Origin: an uncultured Acidobacteriota bacterium
GTDB lineage: Bacteria > Acidobacteriota > Vicinamibacteria > Vicinamibacterales > UBA8438
DNA: 64,000 nucleotides
Direction of reading: 5' to 3'
NCBI GenBank assembly: GCA_913043225.1
Contig: CAJWLU010000003.1
Span: 176,665-240,664 of the forward strand
Under the pieces are notes generated by a model. That model was not told the origin of the DNA, did not search any database, and worked only from the letters and a program-made list of their open reading frames with translations. Made by a program: the position numbers and the translations under genes. The first letter of the stretch is position 1. Every line of letters starts with the position of its first letter. This document shows, one piece after another, positions 6,055 to 21,017 of the stretch.

Positions 6055-8616
6055 TTACCGGATCTTCGCAAGAACGGCGTGATGATAGTTGAAGTCGACC
6101 CGCTTCGGTCGTGCTGGGAGCGGCAGGGTCACCCGCACTTCTTCCTCATCGACCCAGATCCTTCGGAGCATCGGCGGGCGGTTCTCGAAGGTTAGATGGA
6201 TCGGCACCGGCATCCGAAATCCGGCCGAGACGTCCCTCTGGCGAATGGTACCCTCCAAGACGTACCCGTCGCTCTCCGTGCGCACGTCCAGGTCCACGTC
6301 GTAGGTCGGGACCTCGACTCCGTAGACCCACTGGTCGAAGAACCAGTCCATCGGTTCGCCAAACGTCTCGTCGACCGCGTCCTCGAACGATCGGGTCGAC
6401 ATGACGCCGCCGACGTGCGCGGTCGCGTATCCCCGCATCAACTGGCGGAAGCGTTCGTCGCTCCCCGTGTCGGGGTCGAGCAGCATGGCGCGCAGCATAT
6501 GCAGGATGTAGGCGCCTTTCTCGTAGACGATGACCCGGTAGTCGAACGGGGTCTCGGTGGAGTTCAGCCGATGGCCTACCACCAGCGCTCCAGAGTCGTG
6601 GCCGTCGCTTCGCTGGAGCGCGCCCGGCGAAAATCCGTAGTGGCGCAGGCCCATACCCTGTCCCACCTGGCCTTCGCCTAGCACGTCGTGCCGCCAGGCG
6701 TCGATCATCTCAAGGAACTGGTCCTCATCCTCCAGGGCTTGAAGCGCGTACAGTGCCGCCGCGTACTGGGCAAAGCCCTCGCTCATCCACTGGTCCCGAT
6801 AGTCTTCCCAGTCAATGGCGGCGCCCCACCACTGGTGAGCGACCTCGTGGGCCCGGAACAATTCCGCCTCGCCGGTGTGGAGCTCCCCGAAGGCCTGATA
6901 GGAGAGTAGTAGCAGGCCGGGAAAGGCTTGACCACTTTGGGTCGGGGTTTCGGTGGTCAACAAGGAGGAGAACGGGAACGGTCCGAAGTAGTCGCTGAAG
7001 AGCTCAATCGATGCCGTGAGGTCCTCGACCGTCTTTTCCCGGTTGCCCGGCGCAAAGCCCAGGTGGTTGTCGTTGCCGTACACTGAGACCGCCGGCGGCG
7101 ACGCGCGTTCGACCGTTGTTACGTCGAATTGTCCGAGGTGGAATGACATGTTGCGTACCGGCTTGTCGGTGACCCAACGCATGATCCGAGTGTCGTCCAC
7201 CACCTCTTCGCGGGTCATGACGCCGCCGCTGGCCACCTGATAGCGCTCAGGCATCCGGAAGGTCAGGTCAAGCCGGGTCAACCGGGTGTCTGGATGACGG
7301 GGTTGCCAGTAGATAGTGTCCTTGAGCAGGAAGTCGTTGCTCTCGCGAAGGCGTTCGATGAGCTCGCCCTCGTAGGCCAGCTGGACGACGAATCGTTCTC
7401 CCGCCTCGAACGTGCGCGGTAGCTCGATCGTGATCCAGGGCTCGAAGACGTCGTCAGCCATGAGCCGATCGTCACGTTCGCGGACGAAGGGGACCGCCTC
7501 GCCGGAGAGGGGGGTCGGCTCGTCGGGTGCGGGAGCTTCCGCGGCGGTGTTCTCCTTCGCCTCCATCTGGAGGAGCGAGGGCGACGTGTCTCCCTCTGGC
7601 GGCGGAGCGAGTCTGACGTCGATCACCTCCAGCACCTGGCTCAGTAACAGACGAAGACCCCGCGTGGGTTCCAATGGCTCGATCAGCAGCGCCGCGGTCC
7701 CACTCGCGTCTCCGTTGCCCTCAAGCGCGAGATCCACCTGGGCGCGTGGCACTCTGATGCGCGGGTTCCATGCGTCGCTGTCGAGTGGCCGGGCCGGTAG
7801 CCCAAGCGCGCCACCGGTTACCTCGTCGTCGAGGCTTTCCGGATCGACGACGTAGCCATCAAGTGCGCGCGCGCGCTGCTCCGCGGTGAAGTCAGGCAGG
7901 AAGTCGACGCGGAGCCAGTAGTCTCGGATGCGTCGCCGGCTATCGTGCTTGTAGAGTTCGACTTCCTCTCTCGCGCCGGGGTCGCGCGTGATGGTGAGCC
8001 AGCCTTCGTCCTTAGTGTCGATATCGGCTAGGAGAAACGCACGGTCGCTCTGAAGCGTGCCGGCTTGCCGCCGGAGGAGGTCCTCCAGGATCCGTCCGTC
8101 CGGGTTGTGGAGCTGGTCCTCAAGCCGATCTTCCCGCCGGTCGTCGAGATACCGCGCGGCTCGTTTGGGGTCGCCCTCGTCGTCGGCCGGGTCGGCCAAC
8201 GCACGGAGGTCTCGCAGTGTGTCGCTTACGGACCAGACCACGAGTCGCTCGAACGCTTCGTCGACGTGGTGGTCGTCGGAGAGCTTCTCCAGCTGGTGGT
8301 ACTCCACCGCGTCCGGGGCGAACCCGCGGAGCACGCCGTCTCCGAGGTAGACGGCGATCGGGATTAGGCCGTCGACTTCTTGCCCGAGATAGAGTCGGCC
8401 GTCGGATAGCTCCAGTTCGAAACGGTCGAGACGCAGGCGCTGGCCACGGATGCGACCTGCGTAAGTCATCTCCTCCCCGCGCAGCGTGGAGTAGCGGCCT
8501 GGCGGTTCCCGTTCCTCGTCCTGTGCCACGCTCGGGGTGGGTATCCCTAGAGTGACCGCGTAGACGGCGAGCGGCAGCAGTACGACTCGGCCGCTGGGCA
8601 TGTCGCCAGCGTACAC
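6055..8616 (-). CDS. M1 family zinc aminopeptidase, secreted
   Basis: AHEVAHQWWG (HExxH), WMSEGFAQY, YEKGAYILHML, WFFDQWVYG; signal peptide; true start may be ATG 8601. Confidence 0.9.
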   Translation of the reverse strand: MYAGDMPSGRVVLLPLAVYAVTLGIPTPSVAQDEEREPPGRYSTLRGEEMTYAGRIRGQRLRLDRFELELSDGRLYLGQEVDGLIPIAVYLGDGVLRGFAPDAVEYHQLEKLSDDHHVDEAFERLVVWSVSDTLRDLRALADPADDEGDPKRAARYLDDRREDRLEDQLHNPDGRILEDLLRRQAGTLQSDRAFLLADIDTKDEGWLTITRDPGAREEVELYKHDSRRRIRDYWLRVDFLPDFTAEQRARALDGYVVDPESLDDEVTGGALGLPARPLDSDAWNPRIRVPRAQVDLALEGNGDASGTAALLIEPLEPTRGLRLLLSQVLEVIDVRLAPPPEGDTSPSLLQMEAKENTAAEAPAPDEPTPLSGEAVPFVRERDDRLMADDVFEPWITIELPRTFEAGERFVVQLAYEGELIERLRESNDFLLKDTIYWQPRHPDTRLTRLDLTFRMPERYQVASGGVMTREEVVDDTRIMRWVTDKPVRNMSFHLGQFDVTTVERASPPAVSVYGNDNHLGFAPGNREKTVEDLTASIELFSDYFGPFPFSSLLTTETPTQSGQAFPGLLLLSYQAFGELHTGEAELFRAHEVAHQWWGAAIDWEDYRDQWMSEGFAQYAAALYALQALEDEDQFLEMIDAWRHDVLGEGQVGQGMGLRHYGFSPGALQRSDGHDSGALVVGHRLNSTETPFDYRVIVYEKGAYILHMLRAMLLDPDTGSDERFRQLMRGYATAHVGGVMSTRSFEDAVDETFGEPMDWFFDQWVYGVEVPTYDVDLDVRTESDGYVLEGTIRQRDVSAGFRMPVPIHLTFENRPPMLRRIWVDEEEVRVTLPLPARPKRVDFNYHHAVLAKIR

Positions 8617-16459: not shown

Positions 16460-16488
16460 TTGATATTGAGAATGAGTCTCAATATCAA
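16460..16488. promoter_or_regulatory. Fur-family box 1
   Basis: TTGATATTGAGA-ATGAG-TCTCAATATCAA, perfect 12-bp inverted repeat upstream of the chelatase/receptor operon. Confidence 0.85.
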
Positions 16489-16536: not shown

Positions 16537-17751
16537 TTATTTGAGGCGAGAGCGTTCGTGGTGGGATCTCAAGAGGCCCTCTCTTGCGAGTCGCCGAATC
16601 AGTGTGAGGTTTCCTGCGGTGTCGAGCGGACCCGGGAGTTCAAGGGCGGTAAACCTTTCATTAGCACAGATGAACTCGATGGCTTCGGCGACATGGAGCG
16701 GGAACCGCAACTCCTGCCCAGCGAAGCACATCACGCACTCGTTCTGCGAGAGGTACGAGTGGATGGCCATCTCTCGTCGAATGACCACCGTATCCTCGTT
16801 CACCAGATGCTGGTCGGCCCGCTGAGTCAGAAGGTCTGAGAAAAGCGGTTGATTGGCCGCAGATACCTCACTGGCAAACCGTCGCCAGACATCCTCAAAA
16901 GAGCGATCGAGTGCCAAGTCAAAGTGCTGGCGAGCCAGGGTCGCGGTCTCTTCTGGTGTGAGTTTCCCACTCGCGAAACCGACTGGGAGGTTGGCGCGGA
17001 GGGCTGGGTTCTCGAGGGCTGCGGCCGACACTGCGTCGGCGAGAAAGTCAGCCCATGTAAAGGCGGTCAATCCGAGGGTGATGTGAAGAGAAGCGGTATC
17101 GACCGACCGCGCGGCATGCATCAGTCCTCGCGGAAGATAGACGAAGTCGCCCGCATGAAGATCGAACTCGTCGATTGTGCGCCCAGGGCGATCGACGTCC
17201 GGATTGCACTTCTGCCCTCGCAAGGGCAGCGCGATCGGGCTCTCGAAGACACTCCACCGTTTTGAGCCGCTGACTTGCATCACGAAGACGTCGTGGGTGT
17301 CCCAATGGGGCTTGAACCCTTGGGCCTCTGGGGGCGTGAGATAGATGTTGGTCTGGATGCGGGAACCGAAGCGCTGCCCCAGCGCGACGCAAAGCGCCGC
17401 GAGTTGGGGGAGGCGACGATGGAGCCCACGAAAGATGACGGTCGCGCCTTCGTCGAAGAGGCGCGTCACTTCCAGCGGTTCGGCTACCCCGGCTGGGCCG
17501 GTGAACCGGCTGGCGTCGATGGCGGTCTCGTCGGCTCGCACTAGTGAAATGTCAGGGAAGCGGAGCGCATGCGTCCCCAGCACGTGGTCCAAGTCGGCGA
17601 AGGTCAGGAGCGACTCGAAGTAATTGGGCTGTTGGCGGTGGACGACCCGGTGTCGTCGCTCGTAGAACTCATCCTCGAAGGTTGAAGTCGAGAGCGGATC
17701 GAGTAGCCAGGCGTACGGAGCGTTGGCGATGGGCGGCGTGTGTGGCTTCAT
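16537..17751 (-). CDS. JmjC/Cupin_4 2-oxoglutarate Fe(II) oxygenase (NO66/ROX-like)
   Basis: NIYLTP...QGFKPHWDTHDVFVMQVSGSKRW (HxD), GDFVYLPRGLMHAA (distal His), SLHITLG, C-terminal winged-helix-like tail LIRRLAREGLL. Confidence 0.9.
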   Translation of the reverse strand: MKPHTPPIANAPYAWLLDPLSTSTFEDEFYERRHRVVHRQQPNYFESLLTFADLDHVLGTHALRFPDISLVRADETAIDASRFTGPAGVAEPLEVTRLFDEGATVIFRGLHRRLPQLAALCVALGQRFGSRIQTNIYLTPPEAQGFKPHWDTHDVFVMQVSGSKRWSVFESPIALPLRGQKCNPDVDRPGRTIDEFDLHAGDFVYLPRGLMHAARSVDTASLHITLGLTAFTWADFLADAVSAAALENPALRANLPVGFASGKLTPEETATLARQHFDLALDRSFEDVWRRFASEVSAANQPLFSDLLTQRADQHLVNEDTVVIRREMAIHSYLSQNECVMCFAGQELRFPLHVAEAIEFICANERFTALELPGPLDTAGNLTLIRRLAREGLLRSHHERSRLK

Positions 17752-17813: not shown

Positions 17814-18281
17814 CTACTGATGAAGCTCGACGCCCTGGGCGACGAAGCTTACTTCGGTTGCCGTGCCGTCAGGGTTTCGAGTCAGCGCGACACCCTCGGC
17901 GATGAGGTGATCCGCGTCGGCTTTGGAGAAGACGTTCGTTTCCAGGCGGCCTTCGAGGCGAGCTCGTTGTCCGGCTGAGTCCGTGGGGACGAAGAAGGCG
18001 TAGTCTCTGAAAGTTACCCGGATTCCACGGTCGTCGCCAGGCCTGACTAACTCCATCCAGCAGCCCTTGACCTGACAGACCCGCTTGACTTCTCCCTCGA
18101 GCGTCAGCAGACGATCCGCATACTGGTCAGCCTGTTCGACAGCTTCGTCAAGCCCAATCGCTGGGGAGCCGCCGAGCCTGGTTCCTCGGGTCACGATGTT
18201 CTGGGCGGTGGCCGAGCCTATCGAAAGCACTGCGGCGATGGTGAATGCGCTGATCTGACGAGTAGGGCGTAGTGATATCAC
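17814..18281 (-). CDS. DUF4920-like exported protein
   Basis: Signal peptide; GEVKRVCQVKGCWMEL, IRVTFRDYAFFVP. Confidence 0.8.
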   Translation of the reverse strand: MISLRPTRQISAFTIAAVLSIGSATAQNIVTRGTRLGGSPAIGLDEAVEQADQYADRLLTLEGEVKRVCQVKGCWMELVRPGDDRGIRVTFRDYAFFVPTDSAGQRARLEGRLETNVFSKADADHLIAEGVALTRNPDGTATEVSFVAQGVELHQ

Positions 18282-18390
18282 CTAAGGTCCCTTCTGTGAG
18301 CGTCGGACAGAGCTTTAGCATAGCAGAAGCCGATCCGACCGCGAGGTGAGCGGTGAGGTCTGTGCAAGCGTACCTAAGAGTTTTTGATTT

Positions 18391-18420
18391 ATTGAGATTG
18401 AGACTCAGTCTCAATATGTT
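18391..18420. promoter_or_regulatory. Fur-family box 2 overlapping a plus-strand promoter between divergent operons
   Basis: Perfect 9-1-9 ATTGAGACT-C-AGTCTCAAT (18397-18415) plus an extra ATTGAG hexamer; TTGAGA(18392)-N17-TATGTT(18415). Confidence 0.85.
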
Positions 18421-18426
18421 ATATGT

Positions 18427-18520
18427 AGAGACCCACCTGCCGGGTAGGTGGGTGTAGCGGGATATCGGGGAAAGGGGACCCCAGATAGATGCCCGTGGGG
18501 CGAGGCAACGCCCCACGGGC
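18427..18520 (+). ncRNA. Candidate structured RNA (sRNA or flavodoxin leader)
   Basis: Two hairpins just after the predicted promoter: ACCCACCTGC/GTAGGTGGGT (18431-18453) and perfect 12-bp GCCCGTGGGGCG/CGCCCCACGGGC (18491-18520). Confidence 0.35.
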
Positions 18521-18697
18521 CGTCGAACCTGCATCGGCCGTCTGAGAGCGAATCAAACGGGTAACCAGCGTCGTCCGACCTAGCGAATGTAGCACACCGT
18601 TGGACGGCTGCTGCGGCCACTTTCTGCATGCGTGCATCTACGGCGGACCAGGTCGAGGATCAGCACGGTGTAGCTACTTCCCCAAGGACCTCAATAC

Positions 18698-19258
18698 ATG
18701 GAAGCGTCAATCGCCATCTTCTTCGGATCCACCACCGGCAGTACACAGATGGTCGCGGAAAAGATCCGTGATCTCCTGGGTGAGCGGCTCTCTCACCTCG
18801 CCGATGTGAACACGGCGGAAGCGTCTGAACTCGAGCAGTACGACGTGATCTTCTTCGGAGTGCCAACGTGGAACGTTGGTGAGATGCAGGATGACTGGGC
18901 CGATTTCATTCCCAATATGTCGGAACTGAACCTTGCAGGAAAGAAGGTTGCCTTCTTTGGGGTTGGCGATGCGGTCGGCTACGCCGAGAACTTTCTGGAT
19001 GCTATGGGCGAGCTCTGGGCGGCCGTGTACGCACAAGGCGCGCCGACACTGGTAGGCGTGTGGCCGACCGACGGATACGTGTTCGAAGCATCGAAAGGGC
19101 TTTACGACGACAACCATTTCCTCGGCGTGGGTCTCGACGAAGACAACGAATCTCACCTAACAGATGAGCGACTGGACCTCTGGCTTGCGCAGGTGCTCCA
19201 GGAGCTGGCCTTGGTTGAGGCCGCAGGAGAGGCCGTCGACGAGGCGGTTGCTCAGTAG
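18698..19258 (+). CDS. fldA: Long-chain flavodoxin
   Basis: [56 protein letters not shown]. Confidence 0.93.
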
Positions 19259-19286
19259 CCGTTGGTGCTATGCAGGAAGGAGAATA

Positions 19287-19892
19287 ATGATGAACTACAC
19301 CGGGCCCAAAGTGCGTCTGAGTCGAAAGCTGGGCGTCGCCCTGACCCCGAAGGGGCAGGTGGCGATGGAGAAACGGCCGGGGCGACCTGGCCAACATGGT
19401 GGGATGCGTCGCCGCCGGCAGGAGACGTCTTACGGAAAACAACTGCTCGAAAAGCAGCGTCTACGCTTTCAGTACAACGTACACGAACGTCAGATGCGCA
19501 CCTACTTTAAGCGGGCGATGCGGAGAGAGGGACCGACTGGAGATAACCTCGTTCAGCTTCTCGAATCGAGACTTGACGCCCTCGTATATCGGGCGGGTTT
19601 GGCCCGTACGATCTACGCGGCACGTCAGTTCGTTAATCACGGCCATATCGACGTCGATGGCAAGCGTGTCGACATTCCCTCCTTCAGCGTTCGCATCGGC
19701 CAGACCGTTGGAGTCCGAGAGAAATCCCGTCAGCTGGATTGCTTTCGGGACGGACTGGGACTAGAGAGCGCGCCTGCCTATCTGAGGGTGGCAGACACCG
19801 AGCTTTCGTTCACGAAAGACCGCGAGCCGGAAAGAGACGAAGTTCCGGTCATTTGTGACGTTCGCCAGGTGGTCGAGTTCTATTCCCGCTGA
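19287..19892 (+). CDS. rpsD: 30S ribosomal protein S4, form lacking the N-terminal Cys motif; probable paralog
   Basis: [67 protein letters not shown]; not in the alpha operon. Confidence 0.95.
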
Positions 19893-20166
19893 CGTCTGTT
19901 TTTGGGTCGAGTCTGGCTCAGCTAACTGGTGATGACCAGCTGGAAGGGGTGTGGTTGATGTCGTTCGGTAGTTCTCCGAGCTGCCAGTGTTGATAGTAAG
20001 GCTGTTGACGATTCGAGACTCGTCCTTGTCACGCGTGCGACGCTGCTGATGAGGGCGGGGCGTAACTCTGAACGGCGAGCGTCGGTCAACGGCCGCTAGC
20101 CGGGTTCTTCAGGAATTTCCGTGACTAGGCCGGACCAGAATAAGTATCCGGCTCCCACGAGAGCGT

Positions 20167-20472
20167 CTAACGGGCCGCCGCTCGTTTACCGAAAAGCCTA
20201 CCGACAGCTTGCATCCGCTGCCAGAAAAAGTCGAACTGCCCGAGCAGCGTGCCGTACCCGATCAGGAAGAGGTGATACATCGGAACCATCACCACGAGGT
20301 AGACGGTCCACTGTACCCATCTCTGGGCATCCGGCGGTAGCAGGAAGGCGATGAGTGGAGCCTTCACCAGTACCGTCGACGTGCCAGCCAGCGAGAAGGC
20401 CACCAGGACGGCGACGGTGCGCCAGAGTGTCAAGCGCCAGCGCTCCTGCATGCGCTGCAGGGTCGCTTTCAT
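20167..20472 (-). CDS. DUF6787-like small membrane protein
   Basis: ERW, AFSLAG and P.Y...L..YGTLLGQFDFFW pattern; TAATG overlap with the upstream peptide gene. Confidence 0.7.
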   Translation of the reverse strand: MKATLQRMQERWRLTLWRTVAVLVAFSLAGTSTVLVKAPLIAFLLPPDAQRWVQWTVYLVVMVPMYHLFLIGYGTLLGQFDFFWQRMQAVGRLFGKRAAAR

Positions 20473-20742: not shown

Positions 20743-20778
20743 AATTTACACCGTATGAGATTGAGACTCAATCTCATA
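20743..20778 (-). promoter_or_regulatory. Fur-family box 3 overlapping the peptide gene promoter
   Basis: Perfect 12-1-12 TATGAGATTGAG-A-CTCAATCTCATA (20754-20778); minus-strand TTGAGT-N17-TAAATT. Confidence 0.85.
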
Positions 20779-21017
20779 TTTCTCTAGTGAAATCTGCCCT
20801 GAGTCCATTCCTCGAGGGGGTGTGCATCCAGCCGGTTGAAACCTCGCAGGCCGGCGACCTGCTTTTCATGCCTCGGCGACAGATGAGGTCGACAATCCAG
20901 AGCTTTCTGCCTTCGATCTGGGCGCCCTGATTCTAGAGGTCGCCTGGGGACAGCTTGCTGGCGAGCGTGCCGAACTGAGTAGCGTCCATTTGCTACAGTG
21001 AGTTTCGACGAAAAGGG

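Follow-up and report, generated by a model that had tools for sequence, protein, structure and literature searches.

Why would a bacterium keep a spare gene for ribosomal protein S4 directly behind a flavodoxin gene? Flavodoxin is the classical iron-free replacement for ferredoxin, and metal-free ribosomal paralogs under zinc control are textbook. The locus described here, within a 64,000-nt stretch of DNA (the window), joins a long-chain flavodoxin gene, fldA, to rpsD2, which encodes a full-length, Cys-free uS4 paralog. The initial annotation had read the pair as iron-sparing remodelling, in which the paralog would free iron from ribosomes. Our preferred reading, to which we give a probability of about 0.5, is that fldA-rpsD2 may be a two-gene iron-starvation module that acts as a fail-safe for ribosome building. 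The source organism appears to be marine and non-thermophilic, judging from the runs that contain its DNA.

The gene pair and the two S4 proteins

The fldA gene (18698-19258, + strand) encodes a protein of 186 aa, which matched the long-chain flavodoxin model TIGR01752 with 196.4 bits (cut-off 146.75) over profile positions 2-166 of 167. Its TAG stop codon is followed by a spacer (19259-19289, + strand) with the ribosome-binding site GGAAGGAG at 19275-19282, and no terminator-like site was found on the + strand between the two genes. The rpsD2 gene (19290-19892, + strand) encodes 200 aa, or 201 aa when read from 19287; the two adjacent ATG codons, at 19287 and 19290, lie 28 nt and 31 nt from the fldA stop, respectively. 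The product matched two S4 models over their full length (NF003717, 239.7 bits, cut-off 116; TIGR01017, 209.8 bits, cut-off 177.2), and the S4 N-terminal domain (PF00163) and the S4 RNA-binding domain (PF01479) both scored above their cut-offs.

Three marine DNA runs yielded contigs that extend across this locus and differ from it by 12 substitutions and a single 1-nt deletion. The strain variant T>A at 19288 abolishes the ATG at 19287, and the ortholog in a related genome (G004, see below) begins with MNQTGPK; for these reasons, translation of rpsD2 probably starts at 19290. The distance of 28 bp given in the initial annotation is correct for the first ATG, and the probable start moves it to 31 nt. 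Within the coding regions of fldA and rpsD2, three of the four strain-variant changes were synonymous. The metatranscriptome run X18 provided one contig of 168 nt, which lay on 19106-19268 only.

The source genome (G000; 3.85 Mb, 96% complete) contained exactly one S4 gene besides rpsD2, at G000:C1:409605-410234, and the two S4 proteins were 41% identical. This primary copy is located between rpsK and rpoA in the cluster rpsM-rpsK-rpsD-rpoA-rplQ; rpsD2 does lie outside the alpha operon, as had been claimed. The primary S4 bears CxxC-x13-CxxxxC at its N-terminus, which is the four-Cys motif that the initial annotation had proposed to look for, and the N-terminus of rpsD2 contains no Cys, again in line with the annotation. 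The genome holds a C+/C- pair, with the intact Cys4 copy (C+) in the conserved ribosomal cluster and the Cys-free copy (C-) elsewhere. Two findings that would have spoken against the iron proposal, an rpsD2 that is the only S4 gene or a primary copy that is itself Cys-free, were hence not made. The closest solved relative of the primary S4 was T. thermophilus S4 (E 5.5e-74), and the Cys region, where the metal site lies, is nearly identical in the two proteins. For rpsD2, the closest solved relative was the uS4 of B. subtilis, a Cys-free and functional protein, which aligned end to end (E 2e-53).

Between G000 and G004, we obtained dN of 0.203 with saturated dS for rpsD2, dN of 0.061 and dS of 1.81 for the alpha-operon rpsD, and dN/dS of 0.11 for fldA. 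The rpsD2 gene is under purifying selection, yet it evolves faster (dN ~ 3x) than the primary copy.

The box, the promoter and the genes behind the boxes

The Fur-family box that the initial annotation placed upstream of the pair is present, with qualifications given below. The candidate operator (18387-18415, no strand assigned, as for the other boxes) consists of an overlapping half-repeat, TTGAGA, and a 19-bp palindrome, which is a perfect 9-1-9 repeat, ATTGAGACTCAGTCTCAAT, at 18397-18415. The palindrome overlaps a promoter-like site oriented towards fldA, TTGAGA-17 nt-TATGTT (18392-18420, + strand), with 9 of 12 matches; one such site was found against 0.6 expected. Read by eye, the equivalent position in G004 is TTGAGA-17-TTTAAA. 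The half-site TGAGACT matches the classical Fur half-site, TGATAAT, in 5 of 7 positions. With at most one mismatch allowed, we counted 8 matches to the pattern TTGAGANNNNGTCTCA in the window, where 0.23 would be expected; none of 100 shuffles reached 8.

A distance of 282 nt separates the box from the fldA ATG in this genome, and one of ~ 690 nt in G004. On the other side of the box, at 115 nt, starts a divergent DUF4920 gene (17814-18281, - strand), which shares the box region and belongs to the context of the fldA-rpsD2 operon, not to the operon itself. Because the box is common to the divergent genes and lies at these distances from fldA, it may chiefly serve the divergent genes. The presumed 5' leader of fldA (18421-18697, + strand; ~ 280 nt) contains two G+C-rich hairpins. 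An Rfam scan of 18150-20200 (E ≤ 1) returned no family; the region thus has no match to a known riboswitch or leader. The leader sequence is not conserved between G000 and G004 and, as the two box-to-fldA distances show, the leaders are long as well as unconserved.

In the divergent operon, DUF4920 is followed directly by a gene for a JmjC_2 protein (16537-17751, - strand). Among proteins of solved structure, this one is closest to the eukaryotic ribosomal histidyl hydroxylases NO66 and MINA53 (E ~ 1e-30), with the bacterial YcfD far weaker (1.8e-6). Since this gene is in the DUF4920 operon, it may share the same box. We considered it as a member of the cassette and rejected it; 14 of the 41 relatives have it, and in G004 it is found on a separate contig.

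Genome-wide, 10 sites carry the exact core TGAGA-N5-TCTCA, and eight of them resemble one another outside the core as well; the box matrix was built from these eight sites themselves, so its scores for them are circular. One box precedes a feoA-feoB fusion, and two precede the cluster L004:572-4051 (G000:C1:153572-157051). We noted four genes in that cluster, for a 467-aa porin-like protein, for two proteins of 187 aa and 156 aa with no family match, and for ApbE; together they may form an iron-regulated extracytoplasmic flavin/redox system. Other boxes precede a gene for a secreted SGL-type beta-propeller and a gene for a 346-aa secreted protein. The window holds three boxes. The second one (16462-16486) heads an operon of genes for a CbiX-like protein (16321-14540), a beta-propeller (14552-13239) and a TonB-dependent receptor (13178-10851). 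The third one (20757-20781) heads the genes for a small twin-arginine-signal protein and a DUF6787 membrane protein, which we observed at 20777-20167 on the minus strand. The remaining target is the divergent pair DUF4920-JmjC / fldA-rpsD2. In sum, an AT-rich 9-1-9 palindrome overlaps a promoter-like site and recurs before iron-uptake genes, as in a Fur regulon. By its predicted gene content, the set behind the boxes looks like an iron-uptake regulon, iron-like and not zinc-like.

We found one Fur-family gene in the 96%-complete genome (G000:C2, L010:1444-2427, + strand; PF01475, 94.6 bits). It directly follows an erpA/iscA-like gene and encodes a protein of 327 aa, in which the Fur domain is fused to a rubrerythrin/ferritin-like di-iron domain. 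On the NCBIfam models, the Fur domain scored 72 bits for Fur, 61 bits for Zur and 53 bits for PerR, all below the cut-offs. The genome also contains one gene for a DtxR/MntR-family regulator, at L241:1024-1698. From this gene complement, the single Fur-family protein is most likely the repressor at the box, and it is our candidate, with the DtxR/MntR protein as an alternative binder. Iron-type regulation of the fldA-rpsD2 pair is, in our judgment, likely, given the predicted regulon behind the boxes.

Distribution and origin of the gene pair

We compared 41 genomes: G000 itself, a single congener, 23 genomes from its family and 16 from its order. Among them, a second S4 was found only in G000 and in G004, and the same two were the only ones with a long-chain flavodoxin. 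G004 belongs to another genus of the same family; its rpsD2 ortholog is 72.5% identical, and its gene order is the same, with fldA, a gap of 32 nt and rpsD2. The segment 18387-18413, which covers the box and the -35 hexamer, is identical in G004 (27 of 27 positions) and is the sole conserved stretch of an otherwise unalignable upstream region. G004 has a second box 370 nt further on, and the genes on the other side of its box encode a Kelch protein, a TonB-dependent receptor and a PepSY_TM protein. In the congeneric genome G001 (77% complete), neither fldA nor a second S4 was found. The comparative support comes from two genomes of one family.

In a sample of 301 genomes across the phylum, rpsD2-like genes (E ≤ 1e-40) occurred in 33, and flavodoxin (E ≤ 1e-25) in two, namely G000 and one case with 39% identity. 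No fldA was present at the 18 loci (± 1.5 kb) fetched for rpsD2-like genes of this sample. Likewise, no flavodoxin gene was present at 160 public loci surrounding S4 relatives (80 genome and 80 metagenome contigs, ± 3 kb), from which we conclude that the linkage is real but narrow, confined to one small lineage. The survey of fldA-rpsD linkage suggested in the initial annotation accordingly yielded one conserved case, G004, and no others among the 160 public and the 18 phylum loci. Outside the family, relatives of rpsD2 reach at most 57% identity, and the best in the metagenome collection 49%. Among 401 sampled Pseudomonadota genomes (including the unpublished G717), none had two S4 matches, 383 had one and 18 had none.

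Five of the genomes were checked with a C+ query. G004, G061 and G073 hold both a C+ and a C- copy; G219 and G029 hold a C- copy only. No flavodoxin was found at the paralog loci of G061 and G073, and no palindrome resembling our box upstream of the C- S4 in G061, G073, G219 or G029. No metal context was seen at the G073 paralog locus. Four further loci (L040, L041, L042 and L069) were rejected as paralog cases, the genomes behind them having one S4 each, and the S4 at L208 (G050) showed an unusual partial pattern, three N-terminal Cys with different spacing, which matches neither C+ nor a clean C-. Two observations concern the surroundings of the other paralogs. In G061, a gene for an MntR/DtxR-family regulator (L230:6806-7306) lies directly 3' of the Cys-free S4 paralog. 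In G073, a perfect 10-6-10 palindrome, ACGAGTTTCC-GTTTTT-GGAAACTCGT, is located just before the ribosome-binding site of the Cys-free S4 (L231, ~ 6700-6740), and it may be an operator.

A maximum-likelihood tree was calculated from 31 hand-picked S4 sequences, most of the ~ 200 fetched loci being left out. The G000 and G004 paralogs were sisters (100/99). They fell in a C- clade (99/96) with the paralogs of G061 and G073 and with sole-copy S4 proteins from G219, a Thermoanaerobaculia MAG, an Eisenbacteria MAG and Marinactinospora, whereas the alpha-operon copies formed a separate C+ clade (99/95). The fldA-rpsD2 cassette was probably assembled or acquired once.

The metal of the four-Cys site and known systems

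If the cassette answers to a metal, the set of ribosomal proteins with metal sites bears on which one. L31, L33, S14 and L36 are each single-copy, and each carries its Cys motif; the genome therefore lacks a zinc-type paralog set. Of the five metal-site ribosomal proteins examined, these four and S4, only S4 has a Cys-free spare. A Zur regulon is not what we see behind the box, which is common to feoAB and the TonB-receptor operons, and no further C- paralogs turned up among L31, L33, S14 and L36. As far as can be judged from the DNA, the predicted response would be one to iron; a zinc-specific induction, with a primary S4 that binds only Zn, was the remaining ground on which the initial annotation would have abandoned its proposal. 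The pairing with flavodoxin, the missing zinc-type set and the iron-uptake regulon together make iron the best candidate metal. That would in turn argue for a need for iron at the Cys4 site of the primary S4, and the presence of a spare metal-free S4 behind a flavodoxin gene suggests such a dependence for the normal four-Cys protein.

S4 is among the primary assembly proteins on 16S rRNA, where it seeds the 5' domain. We propose that an iron-loaded repressor on the palindromic operator would occlude the promoter. At low iron, the repression would be lifted, and one transcript would give both flavodoxin and Cys-free S4. The metal-free S4 would then keep nucleating 30S assembly when the Cys4 site of the alpha-operon S4 cannot load. 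This chain would be coherent only if the Cys4 site needs iron in the form of an Fe-S cluster, like the one in the T. thermophilus model. We infer the identity of the repressor, its iron responsiveness, the co-transcription, the ribosomal incorporation and the Fe-S cluster. A role of rpsD2 as a ribosomal substitute under iron limitation has, by the features of its locus, about even odds; the idea that an Fe-S cluster in the primary S4 is the reason for the module is more tentative, and, resting on the analogy with Thermus, we regard it as rather doubtful. Since S4 binds 16S rRNA first, the paralog is expected in newly made ribosomes. The displacement of S4 from finished ribosomes with release of iron, close to what the initial annotation had in mind, seems to us less likely than a fail-safe for new ribosomes. 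In this respect, rpsD2 can be likened to the S14 paralog of B. subtilis, a fail-safe (cited in PMC3087516 as reference 17), more than to the exchangeable L31.

The features that favour the iron-starvation module have to be weighed against other ways of explaining the same pair. It is unlikely, though it is the strongest of the competing explanations, that rpsD2 is a passenger, either a redundant spare acquired horizontally together with fldA or a protein with an extraribosomal role, with no metal logic. S4 has further functions, as a repressor that binds mRNA and as an antitermination factor. The two genes are seldom found in the phylum (flavodoxin in 2 of 301 genomes), rpsD2 groups in the separate C- clade with sole-copy S4 proteins of other lineages (99/96), and its dN is ~ 3x that of the primary copy, all of which would fit a passenger. 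Nevertheless, gene order, spacing and operator have been kept across two genera at 72.5% protein identity and saturated dS, the full-length S4 models are matched well above their cut-offs, and three of four strain-variant coding changes are synonymous, all of which speaks against this reading. We find it improbable that the module answers oxidative stress, or iron and peroxide stress together, flavodoxin then aiding redox repair and the Cys-free S4 replacing a copy damaged by oxidants at its Cys4 site, whatever the metal. In enterobacteria, flavodoxin is induced by oxidative stress. Moreover, the only Fur-family protein of the genome carries the rubrerythrin/ferritin-like di-iron domain, and its PerR score is not far below that for Fur. 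The other boxes, however, precede uptake genes (feoAB, TonB receptors, PepSY_TM and the ApbE cluster), and genes for catalase, peroxidase or Dps were not seen behind them.

The reading as ordinary zinc sparing, with Zn in the primary S4 and rpsD2 as a zinc-starvation substitute that shares a Fur-family operator by chance, seems to us very improbable. The partner gene encodes flavodoxin, which is not known to play a role with zinc. In the literature on C- paralogs, the S4 site was originally described as zinc-binding, and our Fur domain reaches 61 bits on the Zur model; the characterised C- ribosomal paralogs all respond to Zur or zinc (PMC3087516). Against this stand the four C+ proteins with no C- partner (L31, L33, S14 and L36), the box before feoAB and haem/iron-type receptors, and the survey of Chen et al. 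2009 (PMC3087516), in which no Zur site was found near any S4 paralog in 26 genomes with multiple S4 genes.

Returning to the iron-starvation module, it may bear on more than this one locus. Cys-free S4 in iron-starvation operons could be the iron counterpart of zinc-sparing paralogs, evolved more than once, with the four-Cys site of uS4 carrying Fe-S in vivo well beyond Thermus; we consider this generalisation speculative and on balance not the expected outcome. If it were true, ribosomes would be a sizeable iron sink. With an Fe-S requirement at the Cys4 site of S4, the making of ribosomes would depend on how much iron is available, and ribosomes would contain a large part of the cell's iron. 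This would matter for growth in the iron-poor ocean, the apparent habitat of the source organism. The locus also bears on whether the Fe4S4 modelled in Thermus uS4 is physiological, and it offers an answer to the question left by Chen et al. 2009 (PMC3087516) of how S4 paralogs are regulated. Our literature search returned no report of a flavodoxin gene linked to a ribosomal protein gene and no S4 or alternative ribosomal protein with a link to iron or Fur.

In early 30S structures, the T. thermophilus uS4 site was modelled as Zn. According to PMC10450194, the protein coordinates Fe4S4 in PDB 4Y4Y. The Fe-S assignment in Thermus uS4 is a crystallographic model. The uS4 passages of PMC8141631 and PMC10502375 have no Fe-S content, and the first 300,000 characters of PMC11672702 contain no match for uS4 or for an alternative ribosomal protein. 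The primary S4 described here shares with Thermus uS4 the CxxC-x13-CxxxxC motif in a nearly identical Cys region. It differs in that the 4Fe-4S cluster is modelled in a structure there, whereas here we have the sequence motif, in a host that, by its source runs, appears to be marine and non-thermophilic.

The Zur-controlled C- paralogs (L31 and S14 of B. subtilis, and those of Streptomyces and Mycobacterium) resemble our pair in three ways: the C+ copy is in a conserved ribosomal cluster, the C- copy is elsewhere behind a Fur-family-type palindrome, and the likely purpose is ribosome production under metal scarcity. Our case differs in the protein, which is S4, in the co-targets, which are for iron uptake and not zinc uptake, in the flavodoxin partner, and in that no other C- paralog was found among L31, L33, S14 and L36. 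C+/C-(IV) pairs of S4 are known, e.g., from Nitrosomonas europaea, Myxococcus xanthus, Gemmata and Frankia (PMC3087516). The same work leaves the regulation of S4 paralogs open, with sporulation given for Clostridia and nothing for C-(IV); the words iron and flavodoxin do not occur in its text, and Acidobacteriota are absent from the groups that it lists with more than one S4 copy (PMC3087516, section 7). As in those pairs, our paralog falls in a clade of its own that has spread horizontally, and it has no Zur site; the difference is the iron-type context around it. The replacement of ferredoxin by flavodoxin under the control of Fur or iron is likewise similar, as a long-chain flavodoxin is found behind a predicted iron-type operator, and different, as the flavodoxin gene is here linked to a ribosomal protein gene. 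While C+/C- S4 pairs and zinc-controlled C- paralogs were already known, the iron-type context with a flavodoxin partner had no match in our literature search.
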